Origin: an uncultured Candidatus Saccharibacteria bacterium
GTDB lineage: Bacteria; Patescibacteriota; Minisyncoccia; Phycocordibacterales; PALSA-1337
Assembly (NCBI GenBank): GCA_964367745.1
Contig: CAYIYK010000001.1
Span: 28,142-92,141 of the forward strand
Direction: 5' to 3'
DNA length: 64,000 nucleotides
Below are positions 3,378 to 31,760 of this stretch, piece after piece. Each line of letters starts with the position of its first letter. Position 1 is the first letter of the stretch. The notes beneath the pieces are model-generated. The model was not told where the DNA came from, did not search any database, and was given only the letters and a program-made list of their open reading frames with translations. The position numbers were made by a program, and so were the translations under genes.

Positions 3378-3467
3378 TCTAGGATTACCACTAGATTCGA
3401 AAGACGGAGGACACGAAGGTGTCCGAGTCGGGGTCGCGGGCGAGGCTAGTAAGCCGAGACCTGTGAC

Positions 3468-3487
3468 CGAATCTCCTCGAGTCCACA
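3468..3487 (+). repeat. direct copy of the tRNA-Ala 3' end (att-like junction)
   Basis: cgaatctcctcgagtccaca matches 1868-1887 at 20/20. It is preceded by a GC-rich structured stretch and followed by the hairpin ctggcgtttgccag plus a T-run. Confidence 0.7.
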
Positions 3488-3620
3488 ACGAAAGAAAAGA
3501 CTGGCGTTTGCCAGTTTTTTCTTTTGTCTGGAACTTGAACAAGATGAGAAAGGCGGAGGTATGAAAATTATTATATTTGACTTTAGAATTTTATCGGAGC
3601 ACAATAATCTCGGATACATT

Positions 3621-4340: not shown

Positions 4341-4375
4341 ACAATCATGTCAACTGACACATTACACTGTTAGCA

Positions 4376-4420
4376 ACCCACTCAGTAGGAACCCTTGCTG
4401 GCTGTGGGTTTTTTGTTTGT
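4376..4420 (+). terminator. terminator-like hairpin
   Basis: acccac-N24-gtgggt followed by tttttgtttg. Confidence 0.4.
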
Positions 4421-4510: not shown

Positions 4511-5185
4511 TCAAATTCTGAAATTTTTTCTTCGTATGAAGATATACGAGAACAAGACCAATCCAGTTGCGATTGTCGAAGCTGTTTCTGGTACCGCACC
4601 AGATGCAAGTGGTGTAACTGATATTTGATAATGACCACAGTTATTGATCACATCCTCGATACCAGATGCATTTCCGAAACCGAAATTGATTACCCTTGGG
4701 AGGGTATTCAGTTGTAATACATAGGAATATGAATGATCTGAACGATATTCAGGTATCCCACCTATGTTCATACCATCATATTCTCCAACAGTATTGTTCC
4801 AAACTATGTTGTATAGGCTTGTTGATTGCTCGTATGTGGTATTGTCACCAATAAAGTAATCATTCGGCACAAGAGACGTATTACCATCAAAAGCGATTCT
4901 GTGAGTTGATGATGATGTTTTGGGTACCCAACCGATTTGTGGATTGATGAATTCGTAAAATGCATCATACAGGTTGACGGTACTGTTTTTATCAAAACCA
5001 ATTCCACTGATCTTAACTCCGACTAGTCCACTGTACTTGGAAGTCGTAGTTGCTTCGATTGAATGATCGAACATTGCAATGAGGTTCTCAGACGGCCCAA
5101 TAGGGTGATAGTAATCCGTTATAACGTGCTGTGCCTTAAGGTTTAGTGACAGCATTAGCACAACGATAACCACGATATTTTTCAT
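4511..5185 (-). CDS. secreted cell-surface protein with a C-terminal sorting signal (sortase- or PEP-CTERM-like)
   Basis: N-terminal signal peptide MKNIVVIVVLMLSLNLKA. C-terminal VPETAS, then the hydrophobic segment TIATGLVLFSYIFI, then RRK. That is a motif + TM + basic-tail architecture. Confidence 0.5.
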   Translation of the reverse strand: MKNIVVIVVLMLSLNLKAQHVITDYYHPIGPSENLIAMFDHSIEATTTSKYSGLVGVKISGIGFDKNSTVNLYDAFYEFINPQIGWVPKTSSSTHRIAFDGNTSLVPNDYFIGDNTTYEQSTSLYNIVWNNTVGEYDGMNIGGIPEYRSDHSYSYVLQLNTLPRVINFGFGNASGIEDVINNCGHYQISVTPLASGAVPETASTIATGLVLFSYIFIRRKNFRI

Positions 5186-6624: not shown

Positions 6625-6834
6625 ATGAGTAAAATAAAATTGGTACATAGTTTAAGAAGAGAGATTAAAAAGTTAAATAGTGAGATCGATTTGAAAATAA
6701 TAAAAGGTTTACCATATAAAGCAGAAGCTAGACGACATAAGTTCCTAGTATCACAGTTCTATGGATTCTATGAATCTTCAAAACAGAGCTGGCTTAAGAG
6801 GACTATGCTGACATTCGCTAGTTTTGTCCTATAA
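6625..6834 (+). CDS. small basic protein (69 aa), first gene of the SOS-box-controlled lexA operon
   Basis: ORF track. Lys/Arg-rich N-terminus. Lies 9 bp upstream of lexA. Confidence 0.4.
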   Translation: MSKIKLVHSLRREIKKLNSEIDLKIIKGLPYKAEARRHKFLVSQFYGFYESSKQSWLKRTMLTFASFVL

Positions 6835-8139: not shown

Positions 8140-9525
8140 ATGACACCAACAATATTTGTAATACTTGGAATAACCGGAGACTTGGCTGGTAGAAAATTAC
8201 TGCCCTCACTTTTGAGTCTTTATGTTAAAAAAGAATTACCAAATAAATTTGCTATAGTTGGATTTTCACGAAGATCTTTTACAAGAGAAGAGTTCCGCTC
8301 TTTTATCCGTGAACATATGCATGTTAAGCCAGGTCAATACAGAGAGGAAGATGTAAAGCACTTCATCGATCATATGTATTATGAACAAGGGAATTTCGAC
8401 ACTCCTGAATCATATGCTCAACTTGCTCAAAGATTAAAGAATATCGATGACAATTTTGGTCAATGTTCAAACAAACTCTTCCATCTTTCAACCCCACCTT
8501 CTCTATATGAATCAATATTCGTCCACCTTCACAAATCTGGACTTACAGTTCCTTGTGGTAACGATGAGGGTTGGACAAGAATACTTGTTGAAAAGCCTTT
8601 CGGTAATGATATTGAGACCGCTCGAAAGCTCGACAAAAAGCTCGGAGAACTATTTAAAGAAAATCAGATTTTTAGAATTGATCACTATTTAGCAAAGGAG
8701 GCTTTGCAAAATATTCTTACTTTCCGTTTCGCGAATTCACTTTTCGAACCCTTGTGGAATAAGAACCATATAGATAAGGTTCATATAAAACTAATGGAGA
8801 AAATCGGAGTAGGTAGTAGAGGCGCTTTCTATGATGCTATTGGTGCATTGAAGGATGTAGGACAAAACCATCTTTTACAAATGCTTGCAGTTGTTGCTAT
8901 GGAACCACCTGAGAATTTTGATGCAAAAAATATAAGAAAAGAAAGAGCAAAAGTTCTTGAGAAAATTCAGATAATTCCTACAAAAAATATTTCAAGTAGA
9001 GTAGTTCGTGGACAATACGAAGGTTATAGATTTGAACCTGGAGTAAAAGAGCATACTCAGACTGAAACATATTTTAGAATTGAATCATATATTAACAATG
9101 CTCGTTGGAAGAATGTCCCTTTTTATCTAGAAAGTGGAAAAGAGATGTCAGAACAAAAAACTGAAATAAATATATATTTCAAGAATGATAAAAATGATAA
9201 GACATATGAAGATAGACAAAATGTTCTTACTTTTAGAATACAACCTGATGAACTTATAAAAATTGGTTTCTGGGTAAAGACTCCAGGATTTACTATGGAT
9301 GTTGAACCAAAGACTTTGAAGTTCAAATACAGTGATTTCCCATCACATTCTGTATTACCAGATGCTTATGAAAGAGTACTATATGACGCTATTATTGGAG
9401 ATCAAACCCTATTTACAAGCACAGAAGAAGTTCTTTTCGCTTGGAAATATATTACTTCAATAATGTCAGCTTGGAACAATGTACCTTTGACTGTATATAA
9501 AAAGGGATCACAAGATGTGATATGA
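8140..9525 (+). CDS. zwf: glucose-6-phosphate 1-dehydrogenase
   Basis: GITGDLAGRKLLP dinucleotide-binding motif, the RIDHYLAKE active-site motif and EKPFG. Confidence 0.85.
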   Translation: MTPTIFVILGITGDLAGRKLLPSLLSLYVKKELPNKFAIVGFSRRSFTREEFRSFIREHMHVKPGQYREEDVKHFIDHMYYEQGNFDTPESYAQLAQRLKNIDDNFGQCSNKLFHLSTPPSLYESIFVHLHKSGLTVPCGNDEGWTRILVEKPFGNDIETARKLDKKLGELFKENQIFRIDHYLAKEALQNILTFRFANSLFEPLWNKNHIDKVHIKLMEKIGVGSRGAFYDAIGALKDVGQNHLLQMLAVVAMEPPENFDAKNIRKERAKVLEKIQIIPTKNISSRVVRGQYEGYRFEPGVKEHTQTETYFRIESYINNARWKNVPFYLESGKEMSEQKTEINIYFKNDKNDKTYEDRQNVLTFRIQPDELIKIGFWVKTPGFTMDVEPKTLKFKYSDFPSHSVLPDAYERVLYDAIIGDQTLFTSTEEVLFAWKYITSIMSAWNNVPLTVYKKGSQDVI

Positions 9526-9549
9526 TAATTAAAAAATAATAATAAATTT

Positions 9550-9777
9550 ATGTTTCAAAATTTCCTGTTAAAACAAATGTTAAAGAAGCAGATGAAAGAT
9601 GTTCCGGCAGAACAGCAAGAGCAGATTTTTACTATGATAGAAAAGAATCCAGACTTTTTTATGAAAATCGCAAATGAAGTTCAAGAAAAAGTAAAAGGTG
9701 GAATGCCTCAGCAAGATGCGATGATGATGGTGATGAAGAGTCATCAAGATGAGTTAAAGAAGGTGATGGGGAAATAA
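9550..9777 (+). CDS. hypothetical small protein (75 aa)
   Basis: ORF track only. Confidence 0.3.
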   Translation: MFQNFLLKQMLKKQMKDVPAEQQEQIFTMIEKNPDFFMKIANEVQEKVKGGMPQQDAMMMVMKSHQDELKKVMGK

Positions 9778-11738: not shown

Positions 11739-12836
11739 ATGTCACTTTCAATTGGTATCGTAGGCTTACCCAACGTTGGTAAATCAACACTTTTCAACGC
11801 TCTTACAAAAAAGAGTGTTCTTGTTGCAAACTATCCTTTCGCAACGATTGATCCTTCAGTTGGCGTTGTTGCTGTTCCTGATGAAAGACTTTGGAAACTC
11901 TCAGAATTCTCAAAGACTCAAAAGACTGTTCCTGCAGTTGTTGAATTCGTAGATATCGCTGGATTGGTAAAGGGGGCTTCAGACGGTGAAGGATTGGGAA
12001 ATCAATTCCTTACAAATATTCGTGAGACTGATGCAATAGCAGAAGTTGTTCGTATTTTTGAAGATGACAATATCATCCACGTAGATGGGAAAATAAATCC
12101 AGTTAAAGATATAGAAGTAATAAATCTTGAATTGATACTTGCTGATCTTCAAACAGTTACAAAAAGACTTTCAAACCTTACAAGAGAAGTAAAAACAGGA
12201 AAAAAAGAAGCGATTCTAGAAAATAGTTTGGTAGAGAAAATAAAGATAGCACTTGATGCCGGCAAGCTAGCTTCAACAGTAGTTCCAGACGAATTCGAAA
12301 GACCATTCCTAAAGTCACTTCACCTTTTGACCTCAAAACCTTTTATGTATATTTTGAATAAAAAAGCGGGAGGTAAAAATCTAGATGAAATAAAAGATGC
12401 AAGATGGGATGCTTTGATAAAATTCCTAAATGAAAGTAATTCTAAATGGGTAATAGTTGATGCTGGTATAGAACATGAATTAAAGGATATAGATGATAAA
12501 GATAAAAAAGAATTGAGAGAGGGACTTGGAGCAAGTGACGATGGTATAGATGATCTTATAAAAAAAGGATATGAGCTTTTGAATCTAATAACATATTTTA
12601 CAACTGGAGAAAAAGAAACTCGAGCTTGGACTATAGGGCGAGGTTGGACAGCACCAAAGGCTGGAACTGCTATACATGGAGATTTCGAAGAGAAGTTTAT
12701 ACGAGCTGAAGTAATAGAGTGGGATAAATTGATAGAGTCAGGATCATTTGGAAATGCTAGAGAAAAGGGATTGTTAAGAACAGAAGGGAAAGAGTATATA
12801 GTAAAAGATGGGGATGTAATGGAGTTTAAGGTCTAA
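11739..12836 (+). CDS. ychF: ribosome-binding ATPase YchF (Obg-family GTPase)
   Basis: G1 motif GIVGLPNVGKSTLFNALT. C-terminal TGS-like region. Ends DGDVMEFKV*, where the canonical YchF ending is ...DGDVMHFRFNV. Confidence 0.9.
   Translation: MSLSIGIVGLPNVGKSTLFNALTKKSVLVANYPFATIDPSVGVVAVPDERLWKLSEFSKTQKTVPAVVEFVDIAGLVKGASDGEGLGNQFLTNIRETDAIAEVVRIFEDDNIIHVDGKINPVKDIEVINLELILADLQTVTKRLSNLTREVKTGKKEAILENSLVEKIKIALDAGKLASTVVPDEFERPFLKSLHLLTSKPFMYILNKKAGGKNLDEIKDARWDALIKFLNESNSKWVIVDAGIEHELKDIDDKDKKELREGLGASDDGIDDLIKKGYELLNLITYFTTGEKETRAWTIGRGWTAPKAGTAIHGDFEEKFIRAEVIEWDKLIESGSFGNAREKGLLRTEGKEYIVKDGDVMEFKV
12807..12836 (+). repeat. R0: native 3' end of ychF (gatggggatgtaatggagtttaaggtctaa), the prototype of the cassette-boundary repeat
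   Basis: Seen directly. Seven further degenerate direct copies lie downstream. Confidence 0.8.
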
Positions 12837-12890
12837 GTGAAAGTGCCGCCCGATTTTCATCGAACGGCACTTGATTAGACCCTTGACGGG

Positions 12891-13124
12891 TCACTGAGTG
12901 ATCATGAGTTTCAGCAGATTCTTCACTGCAACAGTTCGATTCCTTTTGCTTTTGCTTCCGTGCGCCCGTTTGACATTGCGCACGGCGGCAGCCAATTGGA
13001 AATCTTGCTTTTTGCAGAGCTGATCTTGAAGCTCTTCACATACTGACAGGATGTTAGACATAATGTGCTTTCTGTTGAAGTTAAAACTGAGGCAAAAGTA
13101 ACACATGTGCATGATACCTGTCAA
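12891..13124 (-). CDS. cassette A: hypothetical small protein in a GC-rich segment
   Basis: ORF track. The surrounding 12840-13130 contains several GC hairpins (gtgccg...cggcac and ccgtgcgc...gcgcacgg). Confidence 0.3.
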   Translation of the reverse strand: MTGIMHMCYFCLSFNFNRKHIMSNILSVCEELQDQLCKKQDFQLAAAVRNVKRAHGSKSKRNRTVAVKNLLKLMITQ

Positions 13125-13135
13125 GTATACAAAGA

Positions 13136-13162
13136 CAGCGGTGTTACAGAGTTTAAGATCTA
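13136..13162 (+). repeat. R1: agcggtgttacagagtttaagatctaa
   Basis: Degenerate copy of R0. Confidence 0.6.
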
Positions 13163-13202
13163 ACTATTTACATATAAATTATTTCGTTGTATAGTAGCCA
13201 TA

Positions 13203-13613
13203 GTGAGTAGCTGGTTGTATGGAGGGACACCGGTGTCTCAAACAATATACCAAAATAAAAATTGTATGTATGTATTAGTTTGTGTGCAGTTATCTTCAGG
13301 GAAGAGTGGATACAAAAGCAAAGGTGACGCCATCCCTTGTTTTTCTAGAAACCAGGATCCGCTTGAATCTGCAAAAATGGCAATAGTTCATTTGCTTAAA
13401 CCTGGACCAGATGAAAAAGTTGAACTTGAATATCTGGGTCAATTACAAAGTGATGGTAAAACGTATGCTCTTGTTGTGGACAATAATGATCCGGCTGACT
13501 GGGTGGTCTACGTTAAAGAAATCCTCCCAAATGATGAAGTCGTGGATCTTCGTCATCATTACTCAGGCACATGGACTCATTTCTATTTCAAGAGTATTTG
13601 CCGTAAGCTCTAG
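13203..13613 (+). CDS. cassette B: hypothetical protein
   Basis: ORF track. The true start may be the internal Met (MAIVHLLKPG...). Confidence 0.3.
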   Translation: MSSWLYGGTPVSQTIYQNKNCMYVLVCVQLSSGKSGYKSKGDAIPCFSRNQDPLESAKMAIVHLLKPGPDEKVELEYLGQLQSDGKTYALVVDNNDPADWVVYVKEILPNDEVVDLRHHYSGTWTHFYFKSICRKL

Positions 13614-13673
13614 ACCTACACTTCGACACAGGAACCCCTTTCGCAAGATGTGGGTTTTTCTTTTTATAAAATA

Positions 13674-13700
13674 GAGGATGTGATGGAGTTTAGGATTTAG
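13674..13700 (+). repeat. R2: gaggatgtgatggagtttaggatttag
   Basis: Near-exact copy of the ychF tail. Confidence 0.75.
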
Positions 13701-13708
13701 ACATCTCG

Positions 13709-14131
13709 TTGTATAATATATTTAATATGAAATCACAAAAAATATTAATTGCTGTTTTGTTAGTAATTATAATTGTGCTATCAGTAATATTATATAGATC
13801 AACTCCTAATATCTCAGAAAAAGATTTTGTAGAAGTAATCGCTAAAGGAATTGTTGTAGACAACAATCTAGAAAATCCTGAGATTGGATCATATATACAT
13901 TTAAAGCAACAGACTACAAATGATGACCTATTCGTTATTTACAAGCCATTTCTTAATGGTAAACAAGTGGATTGTTTAAATCCAATTGATGTAAGTAGTA
14001 TATCTGTAAAACCAAGTACTGTAGTAGAAGTTAAAGGAAAGTATCTAAGTAAGGTTAATGGACAACCTCCAACTAATCTCATGATTTCTGCTTGTGAGTC
14101 ACCAACTTCTTATATAAAGGTTATAAAATAA
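13709..14131 (+). CDS. cassette C: small membrane-anchored extracytoplasmic protein
   Basis: N-terminal TM anchor KILIAVLLVIIIVLSVILY followed by a soluble ~110-aa domain. A TATAAT-like hexamer at 13713-13718 suggests the real start is Met 13727. Confidence 0.4.
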   Translation: MYNIFNMKSQKILIAVLLVIIIVLSVILYRSTPNISEKDFVEVIAKGIVVDNNLENPEIGSYIHLKQQTTNDDLFVIYKPFLNGKQVDCLNPIDVSSISVKPSTVVEVKGKYLSKVNGQPPTNLMISACESPTSYIKVIK

Positions 14132-14146
14132 GTTTATTAAAAAAAT

Positions 14147-14173
14147 GATGCTGTCATGAAGTTTAAGATTTAG
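14147..14173 (+). repeat. R3: gatgctgtcatgaagtttaagatttag
   Basis: Degenerate copy. Ends 5 nt before the start of cassette D. Confidence 0.65.
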
Positions 14174-14178
14174 GAATT

Positions 14179-14571
14179 ATGATTAAAAGAATTCTAATTG
14201 TTACAGGAATAACCCTGGCCTTGATTGTCTTAGGGATAAGCTTGTTAATATATCTGTTCGGAAAATCTATGTGTGGTGATGATCAGTTTGTGAAATATCT
14301 GTCTCCTAACGAAAAACATGAGATTGTAAAGTATCGAAGTAATTGTGGAGCTATGACAACATATGTCTATAATGTGGAACTAGATGGAAAAACCATTCTT
14401 CGTTATACGTATGGAGAACCAGTTTTAGTTAAATGGATAGATGATAAAAAAGTTTCTATCGAAATGGCTTCAAGTTCACCATACATGAAGACATATAAAA
14501 TCCTAGAAAACTATAAAAATGTTCAAATAAATTTTGATCAGGATATCAAAAATAGTTACAGAGTAAACTAA
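14179..14571 (+). CDS. cassette D: small membrane-anchored extracytoplasmic protein
   Basis: N-terminal TM anchor ILIVTGITLALIVLGISLLIYLF. Cys-containing soluble domain. Confidence 0.45.
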   Translation: MIKRILIVTGITLALIVLGISLLIYLFGKSMCGDDQFVKYLSPNEKHEIVKYRSNCGAMTTYVYNVELDGKTILRYTYGEPVLVKWIDDKKVSIEMASSSPYMKTYKILENYKNVQINFDQDIKNSYRVN

Positions 14572-14580
14572 TTAGAAAAT

Positions 14581-14608
14581 AGCGGTGTTATAAAGTTTAG
14601 AGTGCTAA
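14581..14608 (+). repeat. R4: agcggtgttataaagtttagagtgctaa
   Basis: Degenerate copy. It shares its 5' part agcggtgtta with R1. Confidence 0.55.
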
Positions 14609-14685
14609 TTCACTATTTAGAAGTTGACATGTTATATATTAACTTATATAGTTTAAAATAGTAAACTTAGACGAATGATCTTGTT

Positions 14686-14913
14686 ATGCAAAATTTGAAA
14701 AAAGGGGATGTAATTAAGTGTAGTTTTAACGGTTACGAATTTCAAGTATCCGAAGTGGTGCGCCATCCAAAATACGACAATGACGGAGTCCCAAGCAGTG
14801 TTCGTGGTCATTACGTGGGTGGTGGTGCTAGTGGCTCGGATCTTCTTTATTTCGGTGGCAAGCATCCTCCATATAATTGGCGAGATTGGAGTGTCATTAA
14901 ACAAACTGCGTAG
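14686..14913 (+). CDS. cassette E: hypothetical small protein (75 aa)
   Basis: ORF track. Confidence 0.3.
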   Translation: MQNLKKGDVIKCSFNGYEFQVSEVVRHPKYDNDGVPSSVRGHYVGGGASGSDLLYFGGKHPPYNWRDWSVIKQTA

Positions 14914-14953
14914 TTTACATCTAAATAGGATTTCAAAAAAGAAAGGAACACAG

Positions 14954-15151
14954 ATGAATACATTACTTAAGGAATTCTACAATGCAAGTACTAATGAACA
15001 GGATCAGGCAAAGAAAATTCTTTTTACAGTATTTTTTGATCTGATTGCACGTGTTGGTTTTGTAGAATTCTGGAACTCGTGTGATGAAAACAGTAAAAAT
15101 GAAATTCTCCAGAAAAATTTGGAGAAAATTCGCGCACTGGCACAATCTTAA
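14954..15151 (+). CDS. cassette E: hypothetical small protein (about 65 aa)
   Basis: Internal Met of ORF 14780-15151. Followed by a strong terminator. Confidence 0.3.
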   Translation: MNTLLKEFYNASTNEQDQAKKILFTVFFDLIARVGFVEFWNSCDENSKNEILQKNLEKIRALAQS

Positions 15152-15200
15152 CCCATCATCTCAACACGGAAAATTCACGTCGCGAGATGGTGGGTTTTCT
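15151..15200 (+). terminator. rho-independent terminator
   Basis: acccatcatctc-N17-gagatggtgggt followed by tttct. Confidence 0.6.
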
Positions 15201-15208
15201 GTTGGGAA

Positions 15209-15238
15209 GATGGTGGTGCGGTGGAGTTTAGGATTTAG
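15209..15238 (+). repeat. R5: gatggtggtgcggtggagtttaggatttag
   Basis: Degenerate copy. Translates DGGAVEFRI*. Confidence 0.7.
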
Positions 15239-15240
15239 GT

Positions 15241-15456
15241 AAAAAATAGCCCCGTCTGGACGTGTTCTGGCTAGGCCAGGGTACCAAACGGGGGTTGCAA
15301 CCATGACACACGCTTGACTACTGAGTCAGCTTTCGGCGAACCGAGAAGAACTACATGTGTCTACGTTTTATTTGCAACGAGGCCTGCATCGTGAGGCGTC
15401 TCCCGAATAAAATATAGCACTCCAGAACATGGTTGTCTAATTAGGTAATCTAAAGA
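15241..15456 (+). other. cassette F: GC-rich non-coding segment with multiple short hairpins; possibly a structured RNA or a decayed cassette
   Basis: No ORF of 60 aa or more. Hairpins include ccccgt...acgggg, ctggc-tag-gccag and tgact-actg-agtca. Confidence 0.3.
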
Positions 15457-15486
15457 GATGCGGGTTACAGAGTTTTGTCTCAATAA
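15457..15486 (+). repeat. R6: gatgcgggttacagagttttgtctcaataa (most degenerate copy)
   Basis: Retains gttacagagttt and the spacing to a stop codon. Confidence 0.4.
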
Positions 15487-15562
15487 ATTAATAAATATGA
15501 ATTTATGACGGTGGCAAAAAAGCTTTATATGTAGGCTATTTTCGTGGTATATTATTTATAAT

Positions 15563-16531
15563 ATGGAGCTGACTCGCAGATTTACCCAATTAAATAGACA
15601 TAATTCAGACATTGCTGGAGGTAAGGGTGCTTCGCTTGGTGAAATGACACAGGCGGGTATTTCAGTTCCTCCTGGTTTTGTGGTCCTTGCAGAATCCTTT
15701 GAGCAATTTATTAAGAAGACCGATCTTGTTCAGGAAATAGATGCTATCTTACATAAGGTTAAACATAACGAAATCCATACTGTTGAAGCGGCGTCAGAGA
15801 AAATTCGTGAACTTATTTTGAATGCAGAAATGCCTACGCATATTGCTGAGGATATTTTAAGACAATTTAAAGAATTAAATAATAAGTATGTCGCCGTTAG
15901 GTCTTCCGCCACCGCCGAAGACGGCATGGATCATGCATGGGCCGGACAACTTGAGTCATATTTAAACACTACAGAAGAAGATGTTCTCACAAAGGTAAAA
16001 CTTTGTTGGTCATCTTTATTTACTCCCCGTGCAATTTTCTATCGTTTTGAAAAGAGTCTTCATTCAACAAAAATATCAGTGGCCGTTGTGGTACAAAAAA
16101 TGGTTGAATCAGAGGTCTCGGGTATTGCATTTTCAGTGCATCCAGTCACAGAAGATTACAACCAGCTTATTATTGAGGCAGGATTCGGTCTTGGTGAGGC
16201 TATTGTTTCAGGATCAGTCACTCCTGATTCGTATGTAGTCGAAAAAGATCCGAGAAATATCTTGGATATTAATATTTCGACACAAGATCGAGCTTTGTAC
16301 CGATCAGAAAAAGCTTCTATAGAGCATGGAAATAACGAATGGAAAACTATTCCTGAGCCAAAAGCATCATCTCAAGTGCTTACGGAAAAGCAAATCTTGG
16401 AACTTTCAGAAATTATTCTTAAAATTGAAGATCATTATGTTTTTCCATGTGACATTGAATGGGCTTTCGAAGAAGGAAAGTTCTACATCGTTCAATCAAG
16501 ACCAATTACAACACTTTCAAAAAACAGATAA
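15563..16531 (+). CDS. PEP-utilising-enzyme N-terminal nucleotide-binding (PPDK_N, ATP-grasp-like) domain protein; the N-terminal half of an RPH/PEP-synthase-like phosphotransferase
   Basis: GGKGASLGEM, FVVLAESFEQF and AVRSSATAEDG, and it ends IVQSRPITTL. This is the classic PpsA/PPDK/rifampin-phosphotransferase ATP-binding domain, and it stops at the domain boundary. Confidence 0.7.
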   Translation: MELTRRFTQLNRHNSDIAGGKGASLGEMTQAGISVPPGFVVLAESFEQFIKKTDLVQEIDAILHKVKHNEIHTVEAASEKIRELILNAEMPTHIAEDILRQFKELNNKYVAVRSSATAEDGMDHAWAGQLESYLNTTEEDVLTKVKLCWSSLFTPRAIFYRFEKSLHSTKISVAVVVQKMVESEVSGIAFSVHPVTEDYNQLIIEAGFGLGEAIVSGSVTPDSYVVEKDPRNILDINISTQDRALYRSEKASIEHGNNEWKTIPEPKASSQVLTEKQILELSEIILKIEDHYVFPCDIEWAFEEGKFYIVQSRPITTLSKNR

Positions 16532-16570
16532 TAAAGGAATAATCAAGATTCTTAAATAAAAAAAAAGAAC

Positions 16571-16600
16571 CCAGAGCAGCAAGTGCACTGGGTTCGTCGA
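16571..16600. terminator. bidirectional terminator between convergent genes
   Basis: aaaaaaaaagaaccca-N15-tgggttcg. It reads as a T-run on the minus strand. Confidence 0.45.
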
Positions 16601-16602
16601 TA

Positions 16603-17202
16603 TTACTTGGGAGGGAGCAAAGTGTCCACACCAAGCAACTGGTTATTTCCGTCGAAACGGAACCGGTAGATTCCCGCTTTTGGAAGCGTCTGCTTCCGAG
16701 GCGGAAACGATGTGTCTAGCAATCCTCGCAGAATACCGAGAAGGGGTTGATGACTCACAAACAGAGCTGACTGACCGAGCTGAATCTTATTCAGAATCTC
16801 GGTAGCCGTCTTTTGAATGTGGGCACCTTCCCGTTCGCAGAAATCTGGAATGAAAGCTTCAACTTGGTCCAAGTCTTGAGGATGACGCTCTGGTTCGAGT
16901 GCCTGATAGACGTCGTCGAGCTCTTTTTCAAGGAGCGGAGCTAGTCCGGTGAGCACTTCCCATGATCCATTCGGAACCGCAATTTCTGCAGTCTCCCGCG
17001 CCCGCACAAATGGCGAGTGGGCGAGATATGCAAATTCGGTATCTGTCAGATGGGTAGCACGGACTATCTCAATCTCCTCTCGGCCTTGCGGATAGAGGGG
17101 AGACCGGGATTGCCACATTCCATGAACTCGGATGTCTTCCTCGAGCTGGTTGTTGCCGTGGCGCATTGCCCACAGCCACTTTTCATCAGTTGGCGTTTTC
17201 AA
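16603..17202 (-). CDS. histidine-phosphatase superfamily protein (PGAM/SixA-like), in a GC-rich gene (about 50% GC by eye)
   Basis: RHG catalytic motif LWAMRHGNN. The second motif is SPFVRARETA. The composition contrasts sharply with its neighbours. Confidence 0.7.
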   Translation of the reverse strand: MKTPTDEKWLWAMRHGNNQLEEDIRVHGMWQSRSPLYPQGREEIEIVRATHLTDTEFAYLAHSPFVRARETAEIAVPNGSWEVLTGLAPLLEKELDDVYQALEPERHPQDLDQVEAFIPDFCEREGAHIQKTATEILNKIQLGQSALFVSHQPLLGILRGLLDTSFPPRKQTLPKAGIYRFRFDGNNQLLGVDTLLPPK

Positions 17203-17296
17203 TCCACACCTCCATATTTATTAGTTTTATGATATACTGCTGTCAAAGAGACCTTGAGCAATTATATCACATTAGACGGCTTACGTCAATAATTTT

Positions 17297-18832
17297 ATGA
17301 CACCAAAAACCCAATCAAAATTACCTAGAATAATGTATGATCAAACACAGTTCACATCGTTGTGGATGATTGATAAGAATGGTTTGTGGCTCTGTGATAA
17401 GGCGTATCACGATATGAGGAAAATTTCAGGGTATACTCCTTCTGAATGGATTATTTATACTCAAAACAAACCTGTCTCGTTTTGGTTTGGTGCATATGAC
17501 GAAGAAGCAATCAATGAAGAAGCAAGGGTAGGATTTGATAATTTTACAGATAAGGAATTTCTAGATAAATTTGAGTCCGCAATAAATAAATCTTACGAAG
17601 AAACGAAGGCGCTCAAAGATATATTTTTCAGTAAGTTTTACAAGAAAGAAAAAGAGGCGCTTGAAAAAGAACCTATTGAGGTTGCTAATTTTATACAAAG
17701 AATCCATGACATGTCAGCATTTACAATGTCATATTATTTTCTCACACAGCCTCAAAGATTTTATAAATTTGAAGAAGAAATAAAGCAATATCTCCCTAAC
17801 AAAGAACTTGAGCATGTATCAACTAATGGTCGCTATCTTACATATATTTCTCAAATTCAAAAGTTTATTACTGATCTGGCTTCTTCAATTAAAGAAAAGA
17901 ATAAAACCTTCAATAATTTTATTACTGAAAACCCAGAATGGTCTACAAAGATTGATGACATTGTTAAGAACATCGGATTTTTGAATTGGGGTTTGTTGGG
18001 AGGTGAGTTGGCTGATAGAACCTATATCGAAAAAGCCGTAGAGGAATTGCTTAATGATGACGCTAAACTTGTTGAAGAAAAAAGAAAAACTTTTGAACTG
18101 ATTACTCATACAGATGAAAGAAATAGAATAGTGGCTAATGATAAAAGTAGAGCGGTGCAAGTTGCAGATATAATGGGTCATTCATCAGTAATGAGATTTG
18201 ATCTCCAAACATTCATGCTTTGTACTATTAACTATGCAAATATCTTTATCAAAGCAGCCCAGGAAAAATATAAGCTAACTAATGATCAACTCGCGTCGTA
18301 TTTTTATGATGAAGTCGTTTCTTTGGTGAAAGAAGGTAAGCTAGTGGATTCAGAAATATTAGATCAAAGACAGAAAGGTTTCTTAAAGATTCACAAAGGC
18401 ACAACTGTTGACAGCTATATCGCAGAAAAAGCTCACAACGAAATAAAGGATTTGCTCGAGTTTAGACTCAGTGAGATTAATTCCACAAAGGAAGTTAGGG
18501 GTACCGTCGCTTCATGGCCAGACAAAGGGACTGAAAAAATATCTGCAAGAGCCTTTGTTCTTACAACAGCTTTTGATATTGAAGAAGAACTGAGGAAATT
18601 TAAGCCAGGGGATATCTTAGTTGCTACTCAGACTCATCCTAATCTTGTACCTCAAATGAAAAGCGCTGTTGCTGTTGTAACTGACGAAGGTGGGATTACC
18701 TGTCACGCAGCAATTGTTTCTCGTGAGCTTCGAAAACCTTGTATTATAGGCACAAAACTTTCTACAAAAATATTTAAGACAGGTGATATGTTAGATCTTG
18801 ATTTAAAATTAGGTACTGTAAAAAAAGTTTAG
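17297..18832 (+). CDS. PEP-utilising-enzyme mobile (phosphohistidine swivel) domain protein with a ~400-aa unknown N-terminal region; the C-terminal half of an RPH-like phosphotransferase
   Basis: C-terminal GGITCHAAIVSRELRKPCIIG matches the catalytic-His motif GGxTSHAAIxAREL. The domain order ATP-grasp | middle | His is that of rifampin phosphotransferase rather than PpsA. Confidence 0.65.
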   Translation: MTPKTQSKLPRIMYDQTQFTSLWMIDKNGLWLCDKAYHDMRKISGYTPSEWIIYTQNKPVSFWFGAYDEEAINEEARVGFDNFTDKEFLDKFESAINKSYEETKALKDIFFSKFYKKEKEALEKEPIEVANFIQRIHDMSAFTMSYYFLTQPQRFYKFEEEIKQYLPNKELEHVSTNGRYLTYISQIQKFITDLASSIKEKNKTFNNFITENPEWSTKIDDIVKNIGFLNWGLLGGELADRTYIEKAVEELLNDDAKLVEEKRKTFELITHTDERNRIVANDKSRAVQVADIMGHSSVMRFDLQTFMLCTINYANIFIKAAQEKYKLTNDQLASYFYDEVVSLVKEGKLVDSEILDQRQKGFLKIHKGTTVDSYIAEKAHNEIKDLLEFRLSEINSTKEVRGTVASWPDKGTEKISARAFVLTTAFDIEEELRKFKPGDILVATQTHPNLVPQMKSAVAVVTDEGGITCHAAIVSRELRKPCIIGTKLSTKIFKTGDMLDLDLKLGTVKKV

Positions 18833-18870
18833 AATATTAAAACTTGTCTTGAGATGATGGTTTTTAATTA

Positions 18871-18900
18871 GATGGGGATGTGATGGAGTTTAGGATTTAA
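18871..18900 (+). repeat. R7: gatggggatgtgatggagtttaggatttaa (27/30 identical to the native ychF end)
   Basis: Translates DGDVMEFRI*. It is the distal boundary of the array. Confidence 0.8.
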
Positions 18901-18957
18901 ACAAAAGAAAACTCGCCATCCGAAGATAGAGAGTAGTCTGTTTAGTTGGTGAGTAGT

Positions 18958-19110
18958 TACTTCTTGCGGGGCTCCTTGGGCCACACGATCTCAATAGCAC
19001 CGAGGAAGATAAGTGCGAATAGACAGTATGGGTTTTTGGTCAAATAAACCGCATACCCGACTGCTGCACTGACACCCAACGCAATACATGATGCAGGTAC
19101 ATATTTCATG
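18958..19110 (-). CDS. small hydrophobic protein (about 50 aa) in a GC-rich block
   Basis: Hand translation of the minus strand gives MKYVPASCIALGVSAAVGYAVYLTKNPYCLFALIFLGAIEIVWPKEPRKK. It is below the 60-aa cutoff of the ORF track. Confidence 0.3.
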
Positions 19111-19293
19111 ACTAAGTACTTTCGTTTGTTGTGAAAACTTACCTAAAAATTATCATAGCATAATTAAATTATTATGTCGAATCTGAGATAATGTTCGCAT
19201 TGCCTCAAGTCATTGACACTATCACATATATGTGCTAGTGTTTTTGTGGATTAGTCGAACAAATTGACAACTCCATACGAAAGGAAAACTTAA

Positions 19294-20247
19294 ATGACCG
19301 CTTCAAACATTACCGAAATGGGCATCGTACAGATGCTCGCCACAGTTCTTGGTGGTGAAATCTCCGAAGATTCTGGTCCGTCCGAACGGATCAAGAGCAA
19401 GGAGAAGCAGAGGGGTGTCATCACCTCACCTGCTTCACGTAGGCTCTACACCGCAAACTCGATTATGTCCGAACATATCGGAGACCTCGTAAACGAGCAC
19501 AACCGCCTCCACGAGAATGAAGAGAAGCCTGAGAATCACGACTGCGAGGCATTCAGGGCGAAAATTTCGCGCCTGGGTGCTCGGAGGGATTTGCTCCACA
19601 GTCTTCTCTGGCAAGCAATCACCGAGGAACACCCTCAGGTTGTCGCAAACAATGCGAGTATCCGAAAAGGATGGCTCCTAGTGGATAATGATGGGGAGTG
19701 GAACGAAATCATTACCGTATCTGACAAGGCAAGTATCGCTAACAATTTCATCAGCCGTGTAACCGCAATCGTCTGCGGAAAGCGTCTGGCGGTGATGGAA
19801 GAAGAACTTGATCTCGTTGGAATTGGTGAGGAAGTAATTGGCTCGCTCAACGACGAACGTATCCAGACCCTTAGATCGCTTACTTCAGAAGTTCACAAGG
19901 AGCTGTCAAAACAGCTTTCTGCGGACGTCATGGACGCCGGTAGTAATGTTATCGGGAATATGACTGTAAATGAGGTGAGCCGTCTGATCGCACAGGCGAT
20001 ACATCTCAAGAAACTGTCTGACCTTACATCCTCCTTGTTCTGGTGCGGTGTTCGTGATGCTGTTCCAGCAGCAGCGGATCTTCCGAATATTGGTATTCGG
20101 CGGGCGTGGGATGTCGTCAAATGTGTTCATGATGAGGACGAAGACGGCATCAAGATGGTGATGACCCCGACGGGTCCCATAATTGAGATGAAAGTCCCTA
20201 TCCCAAGAGGTTTGCTCATGTCCTTATTGGGACGTGGTGGACGCTAA
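19294..20247 (+). CDS. hypothetical protein, GC-rich ORFan (317 aa)
   Basis: ORF track. No recognisable motif. Composition is about 50% GC. Confidence 0.4.
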   Translation: MTASNITEMGIVQMLATVLGGEISEDSGPSERIKSKEKQRGVITSPASRRLYTANSIMSEHIGDLVNEHNRLHENEEKPENHDCEAFRAKISRLGARRDLLHSLLWQAITEEHPQVVANNASIRKGWLLVDNDGEWNEIITVSDKASIANNFISRVTAIVCGKRLAVMEEELDLVGIGEEVIGSLNDERIQTLRSLTSEVHKELSKQLSADVMDAGSNVIGNMTVNEVSRLIAQAIHLKKLSDLTSSLFWCGVRDAVPAAADLPNIGIRRAWDVVKCVHDEDEDGIKMVMTPTGPIIEMKVPIPRGLLMSLLGRGGR

Positions 20248-20283
20248 TCCAATCGACGCCTGACCGCCCCCACAACCTCACAA

Positions 20284-20320
20284 GCCGGTAACTCTCACAC
20301 AGAGTTGCCGGTTTTCTTTT
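20284..20320 (+). terminator. rho-independent terminator
   Basis: gccggtaactct-cacac-agagttgccgg followed by ttttctttt. Confidence 0.55.
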
Positions 20321-20585
20321 ATCTTCCAAAAACACCTGATTTATGGTAATATGATAGGGAATGAAAAGAAGCTCCTTTCACTACGAGACGAGTCATGGTG
20401 GACACAATGATTCAGGTAATGCTTGGAAAAACATTGGCAAAATAACCGTAGTACTTTTGGTTATTTGGGCTATTCAAATTTTCTTTGTTAACTTCCCCCC
20501 ATGGTTCAATCAACAATGAACCTCCTCCTCTACGAAAACCCCGGTACTTCACAGTATCGGGATTTTGTTATATCATACAAGGACT

Positions 20586-22886
20586 ATGAGCTCTTACGAC
20601 CATACAAAAATTGAAAAGAAGTGGCAGAAAATATGGGAATCAAAAAAACCAAATAAAGTAAAAGAAGATTTAAAAAAGAAAAAGTTTTTTGCATTGATAG
20701 AATTCCCATATCCATCAGGAGCAGGGATGCACGTTGGTCATATAAGAAGTAATACAGCAATGGATATAATCTCTCGAAAGAGAAGAAGAGAGGGTTATAA
20801 CGTTCTATATCCAATAGGTTGGGATGCTTTCGGTCTTCCTGCAGAAAACTATGCAATTAAAACTGGTATACATCCGTCTATAATAACAAAACAGAATACA
20901 GATACGTTTAGAAGACAATTAAAAGCTTTAGGTTTTTCTTTTGATTGGTCAAGAGAAATAGATACAACAGATCCAAAATACTATAAATGGACTCAATGGA
21001 TTTTTTTACAATTCCTTAAAAAAGGTTTGGCATATAAAAACAGGATGACGATAAATTGGTGCCCAAAGGATCTTATAGGTCTTGCGAATGAAGAAGTGAT
21101 AGACGGATGTTGTGAACGTTGTGGTACAAAAGTAGAAAAAAGAGAAAAAGAACAGTGGATGTTGGCTATAACAAAGTATGCAGAAAGATTAGACAAAGAT
21201 CTAGATGAAACAGATTTTCAAGAGAGAATAAAGATTCAACAAAGGAATTGGATTGGGAAAAGTGAAGGTGCTGAAATTGATTTTAAAATAAATAATTCAG
21301 ATAAAAATATAAAGGTATTTACAACAAGACCAGATACGCTTTTTGGTGTAACTTATCTAGTGCTTGCGCCAGAACATAGTTTGGTAAAAGAATTGATTTC
21401 TGATGTTTCAAATAAAGATGAAATAAATGCATATATAAAACAAGTAAAAGAAAAAACAGATATAGAAAGAACAGATGCGAAATCAGAGAAAACTGGCGTA
21501 CAGTTAAAAGGAATTAGTGTTGTAAACCCTGCAAACAATGAGGAAGTACCCCTATGGATCGCTGATTATGTATTAGCAGATTATGGAACAGGGGCTGTTA
21601 TGGCAGTGCCAGCACATGATGAGAGAGATAGACAATTCTCAGAAAAATACAATCTTCCGATAAAAGAAACAATTCTACATGATAAAAAAGAAATAATTGA
21701 AAAATACGGTAAATCAATAACCAAATTCAAACTTCGCGACTGGGTATTCTCTCGACAAAGATATTGGGGAGAGCCAATACCAGTTATACATTGTGAAAAA
21801 TGTGGAATGGTTCCTGTACCAGAAAAAGACTTACCAGTAAAACTTCCAAAAGTTGAAAACTATAAACCAACAGAGACCGGTGAATCTCCACTCGCTTCAA
21901 TTGATAAATGGGTAAATACAAAATGTCCAAACTGCAAAGGTAAAGCAAAAAGGGAAACAGATACAATGCCAAACTGGGCGGGAAGTAGTTGGTACTATTT
22001 AAGATATACAGATCCAAAAAATAAAAAGGCTTTCGCTAGTGAAAAGAATTTAAAATATTGGACTCCAGTAGATTGGTATAACGGTGGAATGGAACATACC
22101 ACTTTACACTTATTGTATTCAAGATTCTGGCATAAATTCCTTTTTGATCTAGGCTTGGTCCCAACTACTGAGCCATACAAAAAGAGAACATCACACGGTT
22201 TGATACTAGCAGAAGGTGGAGCGAAGATGTCAAAGTCAGTCGGAAATGTAGTAAATCCTGATGATATAGTAAAAGTTGTAGGAGCAGATACACTAAGAGT
22301 TCACGAAATGTTCATGGGTCCATTTGATCAAGCGATAGCGTGGGACACAAACTCAATAGCAGGATCAAGAAGATTCATAGAAAGAGTTTGGAAACTAAAT
22401 GAAAAGATTGGATTACAATCAAGTGGAGAAATAGAGGTAAGTGTTCACAAAACGATAAAGAAAGTTAGCGAAGATATCGAAGAGATGAGGTTCAATACAG
22501 CGATAAGTTCAATAATGATTCTATTGAATGATTTTGAAAAAGAAGGAAGTATATTGAAAGAACATTACAATATCTTGATACAACTTTTGGCACCATTTGC
22601 ACCGCATGTCACAGAAGAACTATGGGTTATGATGAAGAATAAAGGCTCTGTACATGCCTCAGAATGGCCCAAATTTGACCCAAGTAAGCTAATAGAAAGT
22701 AATGTCACGATAACTATACAAGTTAATGGAAAAGTGCGAGGTACGATGAAAGCAAAGATTGATACTCCAGATATAGAAATAGAAAAAACGGCTCTAAATA
22801 TGGATGAAATAAAGAAATGGACACTTGGAAATGTTCCAAAAAAGGTGATAGTAATCAAAAATAGGCTTATCAACATAGTGGTGTAA
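20586..22886 (+). CDS. leuS: leucyl-tRNA synthetase (short form)
   Basis: HVGH (HIGH-class) motif, KMSKS and the editing-domain region. The internal Met MSSYDHTKIEKKWQKIW is the likely start. Confidence 0.9.
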   Translation: MSSYDHTKIEKKWQKIWESKKPNKVKEDLKKKKFFALIEFPYPSGAGMHVGHIRSNTAMDIISRKRRREGYNVLYPIGWDAFGLPAENYAIKTGIHPSIITKQNTDTFRRQLKALGFSFDWSREIDTTDPKYYKWTQWIFLQFLKKGLAYKNRMTINWCPKDLIGLANEEVIDGCCERCGTKVEKREKEQWMLAITKYAERLDKDLDETDFQERIKIQQRNWIGKSEGAEIDFKINNSDKNIKVFTTRPDTLFGVTYLVLAPEHSLVKELISDVSNKDEINAYIKQVKEKTDIERTDAKSEKTGVQLKGISVVNPANNEEVPLWIADYVLADYGTGAVMAVPAHDERDRQFSEKYNLPIKETILHDKKEIIEKYGKSITKFKLRDWVFSRQRYWGEPIPVIHCEKCGMVPVPEKDLPVKLPKVENYKPTETGESPLASIDKWVNTKCPNCKGKAKRETDTMPNWAGSSWYYLRYTDPKNKKAFASEKNLKYWTPVDWYNGGMEHTTLHLLYSRFWHKFLFDLGLVPTTEPYKKRTSHGLILAEGGAKMSKSVGNVVNPDDIVKVVGADTLRVHEMFMGPFDQAIAWDTNSIAGSRRFIERVWKLNEKIGLQSSGEIEVSVHKTIKKVSEDIEEMRFNTAISSIMILLNDFEKEGSILKEHYNILIQLLAPFAPHVTEELWVMMKNKGSVHASEWPKFDPSKLIESNVTITIQVNGKVRGTMKAKIDTPDIEIEKTALNMDEIKKWTLGNVPKKVIVIKNRLINIVV

Positions 22887-28094: not shown

Positions 28095-28433
28095 ATGGAG
28101 GAGAAAATTATGTATTATTTGTTTGCTATTTTAACGGTAGCGCTTATCTGGTTCATATACACCTGTGGTAAGCGTGAGAGAGCGATGAACGAAGCGACCG
28201 AGGTAATACTCGAAACGCTCAGAAATAATTCAAGCGTAATGAGTGCCTCTGACATTCATTTTGCAATTACTCAAGCCGAAATCGATGTTAGTGTTAATGA
28301 TGTCTATCACCAACTTATTCTGTTGTGCGAATCAAGGCACATTAGGTGCTATAAGCAACCTGAATTTAACGGAAACATGATCGTGTCTCATGGCACTTAC
28401 GCCATCGACACGATTTCCGATTACAGTCGATGA
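28095..28433 (+). CDS. hypothetical small membrane-anchored protein
   Basis: N-terminal TM YYLFAILTVALIWFIY. ORF track. Confidence 0.35.
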   Translation: MEEKIMYYLFAILTVALIWFIYTCGKRERAMNEATEVILETLRNNSSVMSASDIHFAITQAEIDVSVNDVYHQLILLCESRHIRCYKQPEFNGNMIVSHGTYAIDTISDYSR

Positions 28434-28499: not shown

Positions 28500-29342
28500 A
28501 TGAATCACCTTATAACAATCACCAAAGCGGATGGAAAGAAAGAATTATTTGAAGAACAAAAATTAATCGATTCATTGAGAAATGCTGGTGGTAGTGAAGA
28601 AATAATAGATGATATTCTAGGTCATATAGGTAAAGAAATATATGACGGAATGCCAACTAGTGAGATTTATTCTAGAGCATTCAAACTTCTACGAAGTCAC
28701 TCTATGCCTATGGCTATCAAGTATTCTTTGCGAAGAGCACTTTCTGATCTTGGTCCAGACGGTTTTCCTTTTGAAAAATATGTAGCAAAAATATTTCAAG
28801 CTTGGGGATATGAAACTCTTACAGACCAGACTGTTCTAGGTGTATGTGTGGCACACGAAGTAGATGTTATTGCTTGGAATAAAGACAGGTTGATGATGGT
28901 TGAAGCAAAATTCCACAATGAACTAGATCTAAAGTCTGATTTAAAAGTGATTTTGTATATCAAAGCAAGATTTGATGATCTCAGAGGTAATATGTTCAAG
29001 TATGGAGGAATCGTCCGAAAGCTAGATGAGGGATGGCTAATAACGAATACTAAGTTTACCGATCAAGCTATAAGATATGGAGAATGTAATGGTGTAAAGA
29101 TGCTCGGTTGGAACTATCCAGCAAAGGGCAATCTTCAAGATATCATCGAAGAATTGAGACTTCATCCTTTTACTTGTCTTGCAAATATTTCAAATGTAAA
29201 TAAAAAAGCATTATTGAAAAAAGGTGTAGTTCTGTGTACTGATATTTATAATAACCCAAAAGTTTTGGAGGAAATAGGTATGAAAGAACCAAATATTGAG
29301 GAAGTAATGAATGAAATAAAAGTTGTTTGCGGAATAAACTAG
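28500..29342 (+). CDS. ATP-cone domain fused to a PD-(D/E)xK (Mrr-like restriction-endonuclease fold) nuclease domain
   Basis: The N-terminal ITKADGKKELFEEQKLIDSLRNAG is an ATP-cone. FEKYVAKIFQAWGYE...VDVIAW...VEAKFH gives the D...ExK nuclease core. Confidence 0.55.
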   Translation: MNHLITITKADGKKELFEEQKLIDSLRNAGGSEEIIDDILGHIGKEIYDGMPTSEIYSRAFKLLRSHSMPMAIKYSLRRALSDLGPDGFPFEKYVAKIFQAWGYETLTDQTVLGVCVAHEVDVIAWNKDRLMMVEAKFHNELDLKSDLKVILYIKARFDDLRGNMFKYGGIVRKLDEGWLITNTKFTDQAIRYGECNGVKMLGWNYPAKGNLQDIIEELRLHPFTCLANISNVNKKALLKKGVVLCTDIYNNPKVLEEIGMKEPNIEEVMNEIKVVCGIN

Positions 29343-31217: not shown

Positions 31218-31760
31218 TCATCTTGTTGTATCTGATTCTATGTAATTAGGAAATCTATCGACGGGTACATTCGACAGATCAATATCGTTTTCTCTAGGTA
31301 GCCCCAGTTCTTCACTACCACCAAGTCTCTCGGTGTGTTTACCAAAGATGTCACAAGTATGACCAGTGTAGTAGTACATATTTGCTCGGTTCTTGTTAAA
31401 GACGAGGATAATGAATGCTCCTGAATTTTTTGGAGCAATCCACTTGAGACTTCCGACGCAATAACCCACACTAGGATCGTATTTGAAGCAATTCCAGACA
31501 AGCAGGTTTGTATCACTGGCGTCCTGATGTAGTAATGTAGAACTCGGACTTAGAACCCTAAAAATCCTCGATGCCGTTATTGTAGAAGCCTCAACTTCAC
31601 AACGCTGCGCTTGACCCTTGAGTTTGTGTTGCAGTGTTGCAATAAAATCCGCATTTTCATCTGTGATCATTGCCTTCGTCACGCAATCGACGAAATGTAA
31701 TAATCCATCGACATGGCTTAATCCCGGCGACTTTCCATTGAATATTGATTTACCTTTCAT
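31218..31760 (-). CDS. hypothetical protein, GC-rich ORFan (180 aa)
   Basis: ORF track. About 48% GC by eye. No motif. Confidence 0.4.
   Translation of the reverse strand: MKGKSIFNGKSPGLSHVDGLLHFVDCVTKAMITDENADFIATLQHKLKGQAQRCEVEASTITASRIFRVLSPSSTLLHQDASDTNLLVWNCFKYDPSVGYCVGSLKWIAPKNSGAFIILVFNKNRANMYYYTGHTCDIFGKHTERLGGSEELGLPRENDIDLSNVPVDRFPNYIESDTTR

Follow-up and report, generated by a model that had tools for sequence, protein, structure and literature searches.

Organization of the block between ychF and leuS

The stretch of DNA analysed here, 64,000 nucleotides (64 kb) from an uncultured Candidatus Saccharibacteria bacterium and referred to below as the window, harbours a block rich in guanine and cytosine (GC) at positions 18901-20320, between an array of repeats derived from the 3′ end of ychF and the gene leuS. 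Its largest open reading frame (ORF), ORF317, encodes a two-domain protein of an uncharacterised family. The block is not a single segment but is composed of two divergent, self-contained transcription units, in the order terminal ychF-3′-end repeat, minus-strand unit of promoter, ORF50 and terminator, AT-rich spacer, and plus-strand unit of promoter, ORF317 and terminator.

The left border is formed by the terminal ychF-3′-end repeat (…GATGTGATGGAGTTTAGGATTTAA; 18868..18907, plus strand), which shows 0 mismatches to the pattern with 0 matches expected by chance (nhmmer E=1.7e-6) and indeed adjoins the block, as the first-pass annotation of this DNA had it. Next to the repeat, a minus-strand hairpin with a UUCG loop and a T-run (18899..18934; -13.8 kcal/mol, z=-3.2) is the putative terminator of ORF50, and positional equivalents of it are found in the related loci L014, L019 and L021. 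ORF50 itself (18957..19109, minus strand; GC 0.47, GC at third codon positions, GC3, 0.51) corresponds to the hydrophobic protein of about 50 aa noticed earlier; it is a small, strain-specific protein with two hydrophobic segments, the membrane topology being assigned by eye only, and its stretch is missing or replaced in the sister strain L021. By consensus match (10/12), a promoter-like site TCGACA-17-TATGAT with TG upstream precedes it (19152..19180, minus strand).

The plus-strand unit starts with the putative ORF317 promoter TTGACA-17-TGnTAGTGT (19213..19241, plus strand), which has a weak -10 element and lies under the threshold of the promoter scan, but aligns with the promoter of the family. 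Downstream of it lie a conserved 5′ leader with a ribosome-binding site (AAATTGACAAC…ACGAAAGGAAA; 19258..19293, plus strand), where the nucleotide homology to other family loci begins, ORF317 (19294..20247, plus strand; GC 0.505, GC3 0.54, GC at four-fold sites 0.46) and an intrinsic terminator (20282..20320, plus strand) with a 14-bp stem and a T-run. The hairpin of the latter (20282-20314; -20.7 kcal/mol, z=-6) is the strong GC terminator predicted at first reading, and is unlike the conserved GGGCGTGCAC…GTGCACGCC terminator of the family. Nucleotide homology between window and family spans only 19258 to ~20200 and stops before the stop codon, so that the last ~14 codons of ORF317 differ from the family as well; together with the different terminator, this early end is consistent with a longer element that has been cut short. 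ORF52 (20361-20519), which lies past the ORF317 terminator and before leuS, is a 52-aa ORF of background GC with one hydrophobic segment; it is identical in L021 and has a hairpin (20540-20561) on its 3′ side.

The ychF-3′-end repeat array

The gene ychF (11739-12836) is located upstream of the array, which contains repeated copies of the final ~30 nt of this gene, each retaining the reading …EF(K/R)(V/I)-stop. The clearest copies start at 13132, 13668, 14141, 15206 and 18868, weaker ones at 14576, 14698 and 15453. The array (12804-18907) divides short units of 0.1-3.4 kb, and its repeats are not attC-like in folding: such a structure was rejected, as folding energies are 0 to -2 kcal/mol and three of the four repeats tested fold no better than shuffled sequences. 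In L021 (1040-3330) every unit visibly consists of a repeat, a GAATGTTGACA promoter, a gene and a terminator.

The content between the repeats varies between the sister strains (window and L021) and also between L001 and L004. Cassette GC3 within the array ranges from 0.16 to 0.54, a spread that indicates multiple sources, and a locus with repeated, heterogeneous acquisitions is thus supported. Cassettes 14127-15198 are common to the window and L021 and differ at 3/1072 positions. A 65-aa cassette protein of the window array (14954-15151) recurs with 41% identity in the distant L001 array (9389-9583), at both places with a similar terminator next and then a repeat. Two GC-rich units between ychF-end repeats (12844-13131 and 15241-15456; 0.45-0.48) are devoid of a convincing ORF and may represent non-coding RNAs or genes in decay; scanning 12500-21000 with Rfam yielded no genuine match.

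Base composition and codon usage

The mean GC of the window is 35% with a standard deviation of 4.5% (300-bp windows), while 18901-20320 has 47.5% (z=4.4), a level that 0.05% of windows of equal length get to. The jump to about 50% described in the first-pass annotation is therefore real as a step from 0.35 to 0.475 beginning directly 3′ of the last ychF-3′-end repeat, but it is not uniform, as the AT-rich spacer (19110-19290; 0.31-0.37 GC) parts the two GC-rich ORFs. All 300-bp windows with at least 45% GC are located inside 12751-20450, that is, in the ychF-leuS interval. In tetranucleotide usage, no 1-kb window of the 64 kb deviates more than 19301-20300 (z=5.85), the runner-up being 16201-17200 (z=2.6).

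The codon usage deviates likewise. GC3 is 0.54 in ORF317 and 0.51 in ORF50, against a mean of 0.28 (standard deviation 0.08) for 66 window ORFs; GC1 and GC2 of ORF317 are elevated too, and its four-fold-site GC of 0.46 compares with 0.115 in ychF and 0.078 in a sigma-like gene. The block is foreign in both composition and codon usage, one of the properties of acquired islets and integrative-element remnants.

A sharp compositional boundary inside an apparently metagenomic contig might also be produced by an assembly chimera or by insertion of a contaminant. This explanation is refuted by the reproduction of the junctions: the segment 18600-20700 with both of them recurs exactly in three independent assemblies from other runs (L007-L009, identical), and L021, from a different sample, shows the ORF317-leuS junction with 98% identity to the window.

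The ORF317 protein family

The designation of the 317-aa product as an ORFan holds with respect to annotation, since ORF317, ORF50, ORF52 and distant family members have no match in scans of Pfam, NCBIfam, PHROG and PADLOC. It is no orphan, however. A word-indexed search retrieved 16 homologues with 40-100% identity, a profile search of 1.84 billion representatives gave 228 family members at E<=1e-3, and genome and metagenome scans contributed only four more loci. Among the 228 representatives are single-domain proteins of ~150 aa which match either half of ORF317, and ORF317 is therefore regarded as an internal duplication. A phage or plasmid origin, to be considered according to the first-pass annotation, found no backing: tblastn against phage and plasmid collections and a scan of IMG/VR yielded no ORF317 match.

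Conserved within the family are the β-strand motif GEEV(I/V)G, the motifs LFWxxVRD and (I/L)G(I/L)RxGWxVV, a His/Cys cluster of H69, H73, H82 and C84, and further Arg, Asp and Glu residues. The AlphaFold2 model of ORF317 is confident (predicted local distance difference test, pLDDT, 80; predicted template-modelling score, pTM, 0.77) and depicts two helical hairpins with small β-hairpins. A sequence-profile search of the PDB returned noise only. Compared with PhoU-like/COG4129 helical-bundle proteins, identity is 6-14%, with Foldseek E>0.07 and a template-modelling (TM) score <=0.31 on the query; the extra β-hairpins of ORF317 bear the motif (I/L)G(I/L)RxGW, and neither the Pfam PhoU profile nor the metal-binding E/DxxxD motif pair is found in it. 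The likeness is probably one that helical bundles share in general. That ORF317 is a tyrosine or serine recombinase is unlikely as well, since neither an invariant Tyr or Ser nor a corresponding fold was found. Our best guess is a cytoplasmic metal-binding (His/Cys) helical-hairpin protein with a regulatory or adaptor role.

Genomic contexts of the family

Nine different genomic contexts were recorded, and in 9/9 of them the gene is richer in GC than its flanks. In the window and L021 it is positioned between the ychF array and leuS (gene GC 0.505, flank GC 0.35 in the window), and in L001 likewise, with a DEAD helicase intervening before leuS (0.44 and 0.38). L010/L011 show the series AAA ATPase, DUF1360, ORFan, TrpR-like gene and integrase (0.553 and 0.46 in L010). 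In L014 the gene lies between dnaB and cysS with ychF not nearby (0.518 and 0.33), in L015 it adjoins a serpin (0.556 and 0.44), in L017 an efflux adaptor (0.60 and 0.41), and in L018 it is found between HIT and metallophosphatase genes (0.507 and 0.40). L019, a Candidatus Saccharibacteria metagenome-assembled genome, harbours it near RNase R (0.508 and 0.42), and L025, a 47%-GC genome, amid ABC-transporter genes (0.571 and 0.47).

A conserved promoter (CCCTTGACA-N17-TAATAT) and the conserved family terminator with its T run accompany the gene across loci. A widespread family (228 cluster representatives) with neither annotation nor a convincing fold relative is thereby seen to move as a self-contained transcription unit. 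Its distribution over nine loci is patchy and incongruent with the flanks, as that of acquired islets is, and the other gene of the block, ORF50, is absent from L021. Flanking direct repeats were sought around the gene at the other loci, and no convincing target duplications were found. In L002 (8195-10816) a mirror-image duplication surrounds the ORFan homologue and is probably a palindromic assembly artefact.

Link to the ychF-end repeat and to an integrase

Outside ychF loci, the repeat profile matches L014 at 3059-3090 (E=9e-6), L019 at 9515-9540 (E=4e-4) and L010 at 5081-5105 (E=0.009). The window, L021, L014 and L019 share one arrangement, namely the repeat, CAAAAAA with a hairpin (the minus-strand terminator), a minus-strand small gene and the ORFan module, the small gene being different at each locus. 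In L001 the last repeat stands immediately before the ORFan promoter. A ychF-end-like repeat thus precedes a gene of the ORF317 family in four independent contexts.

The ORFan of L010 belongs to a GC-rich island measuring 6 kb or more, at the end of which stands a tyrosine integrase with the R…HxxR…H…Y motifs. The repeat AAGATGGTGGCCTTATAGAGTTTAAAAC follows ~350 nt past the integrase, and beyond it comes a host gene that shares 58% identity with window 28500-29342. In L010 and L017 a further gene stands after the ORFan; L014 retains the start codon of this gene and, in truncated form, its promoter, and is therefore a shortened version of a longer element.

In the window, the ychF-end repeat 18868-18907 borders the block on the left; on the far side of ORF317 the profile search gave no further copy, and no integrase was found within or next to the block, either by homology to that of L010 or among the ~20 window proteins scanned. 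Given the L010 island, the block is read as the decayed and fixed remnant of such an element. That the block is of foreign origin has good support. With a probability of about 0.6 we regard it as a distal remnant, devoid of an integrase, of DNA that was acquired horizontally at an integration hotspot defined by copies of the ychF 3′ end. In an AT-rich bacterium with a small genome, of the Patescibacteria/Saccharibacteria type, the end of ychF would accordingly serve as a gene-capture hotspot at which DNA of distinct composition is fixed.

Several observations weigh against such an origin. The tetranucleotide usage of the block is no outlier once base composition is normalised, so that its signal is chiefly one of GC. 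The higher GC of the gene in all nine contexts, including the 47%-GC genome, is unlike simple one-off transfers and may have a gene-intrinsic cause. The related loci are short metagenomic contigs, possibly chimeric, and the repeat was not found upstream of the gene in L010/L011, L017, L018 and L025, that is, in four out of the eight contexts whose upstream sequence could be assessed (L015, with only ~200 nt upstream, was left out of this count). L010 is the sole locus tying the family to an integrase, and the left end of its island as well as any ychF are off the contig. The 64-kb window holds no homologue of the L010 integrase; Phage_integrase was not matched by any of the ~20 window proteins scanned, the other window ORFs being outside that scan. 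Finally, as no right-hand repeat exists by profile search, excision or integration of the ORF317 unit is not demonstrable.

Two properties of the family stand out, its higher GC than the flanks in every context and its recurrence at the distal end of ychF-end arrays. The recurrence would be accounted for if ORF317 were no mere cargo but had a function in the ychF-end cassette system, e.g. in recombination or maintenance. The family is the only protein that recurs beside the terminal repeat in the four contexts, one of them without ychF, it stays the same while the upstream cassettes vary between strains, and its conserved His/Cys and Arg/Asp/Glu residues would suit an active role. We consider this improbable in view of the contexts devoid of the repeat and of the missing Tyr or Ser nucleophile, and because the conventional tyrosine integrase of the L010 island can explain recombination. 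In its fullest and equally doubtful version, the family would be the dedicated partner of an undescribed cassette-capture system of small-genome bacteria using ychF-3′-end-like sites, would mark and perhaps service the distal array end, and might, with a new fold, act in site binding or in recombination directionality, for example; its persistent high GC would then reflect continual horizontal spread with the system.

Two further features of L019 concern gene ends. A 107-aa gene has its 3′ end in two copies (6807-6833 and 8432-8458, 89% identity) with two inserted genes between them, which suggests that insertion with gene-end duplication occurs at other genes in these genomes. A gene of the metallo-β-lactamase (MBL) fold, ending at ~9096, also has a ychF-end-like terminus (…DGDEKEF-stop).

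Direction, age and donor of the transfer

Between the window and L001, ORF317 is 42% identical at the same locus, whereas ychF is 73% and the sigma-like gene 75% identical; copies of ORF317 at unrelated loci are 62-81% identical to the window copy. That copies at other loci are the more similar ones speaks for a shared hotspot and not for simple vertical inheritance. The first-pass annotation had named conserved orthologues at this locus across low-GC relatives as an argument against acquisition. L001 formally provides one, yet it diverges far more than the genes around it (73-75%) and closer copies exist elsewhere.

Changes on the window branch were polarised with L010, L017 and L014 in agreement as reference. 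The branch shows 39 changes from GC to AT and 21 in the opposite direction; at third positions the counts are 22 and 8. The same bias is found in the L014 copy, which resides in a 33%-GC host, while the L017 copy shows the opposite. Within the clade GC3 is 0.54 in the window, 0.58 in L014, 0.66 in L010, 0.70 in L015 and 0.76, the family maximum, in L017 and L023. From the excess of GC→AT changes and the clade GC3 values it follows that the window copy descends from a GC-richer ancestor and is part-way to host composition; the L001 copy, with GC3 0.40, is nearly ameliorated. ORF317 of the window is in this respect a concrete and datable case of partial amelioration.

These data bear on the possibility that ORF317 is native to the ychF-leuS locus and vertically inherited, its high GC arising from protein composition or from selection on the gene. 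The L001 homologue occupies the same position past the last ychF-end repeat and before leuS, the sister strain L021 carries a nearly identical copy, GC1 and GC2 are raised together with GC3, and the excess over the flanks even in a 47%-GC genome could mean a gene-intrinsic cause. Vertical inheritance is nevertheless unlikely. Amino-acid composition is no explanation for a four-fold-site GC of 0.46 where neighbours have ~0.1, and the GC→AT excess and the 42% identity to the same-locus copy speak against it as well. Moreover, housekeeping four-fold sites are saturated between the window and L001 (58-66% differ), so that residence since the common ancestor would have wiped out the GC signal, yet ORF317 is still short of host composition.

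The presence of ORF317 precedes the split of the window and L021 strains. The two differ by 0.6% across 19205-20725 but by 5.5% in leuS past 20726. As the ORF317 region and the shared cassettes are far less diverged than leuS, island segments appear to have been exchanged recently between strains by recombination. The sharp change of divergence at position 20726, within leuS, marks a recombination breakpoint between window and L021.

With regard to the donor, Saccharibacteria in culture have high-GC Actinobacteria as their hosts and are capable of DNA uptake, and the composition of the block is far above that of the recipient; the first-pass annotation had accordingly named a host or co-resident organism as a possible higher-GC source. 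Acquisition from a high-GC actinobacterial host of an epibiotic Saccharibacteria-type cell is nonetheless very unlikely and is not supported by the family. All homologues with flanking sequence sit amid low- or mid-GC genes typical of small-genome bacteria. The fraction of Gly, Ala, Arg and Pro (GARP) reaches a maximum of 0.34 among 162 members, none of which has an amino-acid composition of the high-GC type, while proteins of 65-70%-GC genomes usually exceed this value. GC3 does not exceed 0.76 and the family-wide promoter is of the AT-rich TTGACA/TATAAT type. The evidence argues against gene capture from a host, although an ultimate host origin, further back in time, is conceivable. The donor class best supported by these indications is a mid-GC relative or its mobile elements.

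A remnant of horizontally acquired DNA may have come about as follows. The family moves between small-genome bacteria of the Patescibacteria/Saccharibacteria type as a promoter-gene-terminator module and at least once is found as cargo of a GC-richer integrative element with a tyrosine integrase, ending in a ychF-end-like attachment sequence. The window copy would stem from a mid-GC source with an ancestral GC3 of ~0.65 or more. Its arrival, or its substitution for a resident copy, would fall after the divergence from the L001 lineage and before that from L021, and it is now decaying to the AT-rich host composition. We infer that a tyrosine integrase acted on the ychF-end site and that later deletions took away the right side of the element together with any integrase and right repeat.

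Comparison with known systems

Islands that insert in and rebuild the 3′ ends of protein genes are known from SGI1/MGI at trmE and from dusA-targeting islands, including tandem arrays (PMC8409611, PMC2297512, PMC4482086). Similar to these, the direct repeats of the window mimic the 3′ end of a housekeeping gene, each with reading frame and stop, the composition is foreign, insertions are serial at one site, and a tyrosine integrase stands beside the repeat in the related island L010. In contrast, the target is ychF, the units are tiny, and the ORF317 unit is a remnant with neither integrase nor right repeat. In the literature searched, neither islands targeting ychF nor the ORF317 family are described.

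In the tycheposon islands of Prochlorococcus, serial integrations displace older elements outward and leave partial targets and integrase-less, degenerate remnants (bioRxiv 10.1101/2020.12.28.424599). The streamlined host genome, the strain-variable content and the remnant pattern match, whereas the attachment site in the window is the end of a protein gene and not a tRNA, and no tycheposon-type replication or integration module is seen.

As in integron cassettes, short single-gene units of strain-variable content are parted by a repeated sequence resembling a recombination site, but the window units have their own promoters and terminators and there is no adjacent IntI gene. Phage morons are reportedly, in papers by Hendrix and Juhala, autonomous promoter-gene-terminator units of deviant composition. 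ORF317 resembles them in its own conserved promoter and terminator and in a GC unlike that of both neighbours; unlike morons, it is located outside a prophage, with no phage genes nearby and, as mentioned above, no match among phage, IMG/VR or PHROG sequences. The block is an ordinary kind of feature with an uncharacterised protein, and the wider ychF-end cassette system is the more interesting subject.

Other GC-rich patches and genes of the window

Six similar patches of ~50% GC had been listed as traces of repeated acquisition. The three inside the ychF-leuS interval are distinct (12840-13130, GC 0.45; 15241-15456, GC 0.48; 16603-17202, GC 0.52), and for this locus the claim of repeated acquisition stands. 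The three outside are weak or indistinct (3380-4420 and 31218-31760, both GC 0.42; 61116-61634, GC 0.39, z=1.0), the GC3 of their ORFs lies at z 0.1-1.2, and they are no evidence of the same process.

The patch 16603..17202 (minus strand) is the gene of a SixA-like histidine phosphatase, the second strongly GC-rich gene of the hotspot, and is GC-rich beside AT-rich neighbours in L027 too. Between the window and L027, its four-fold sites differ by 22% compared to 60% in the neighbouring gene, with amino-acid identities of 90% and 52%; being much less diverged than its neighbour, it too has undergone recent exchange. In 15563-18832, a PPDK_N protein (322 aa) and a 511-aa protein with a phosphoenolpyruvate (PEP)-utilizers swivel domain resemble the halves of an Rph/PEP-synthase-like enzyme. 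The phosphatase gene sits between the two in opposite orientation, and its pairing with the 511-aa gene is also found in L027.

Raised GC3 is observed in two more ORFs of the window, 28095-28433 (0.46, z=2.2) and 46146-46670 (0.43, z=1.9), neither of which is among the patches of the first-pass annotation. The leuS homologue of L001 (13385-16918) encodes 1177 aa with matches to NUDIX and Ser_hydrolase domains, compared to 773 aa for leuS of the window.

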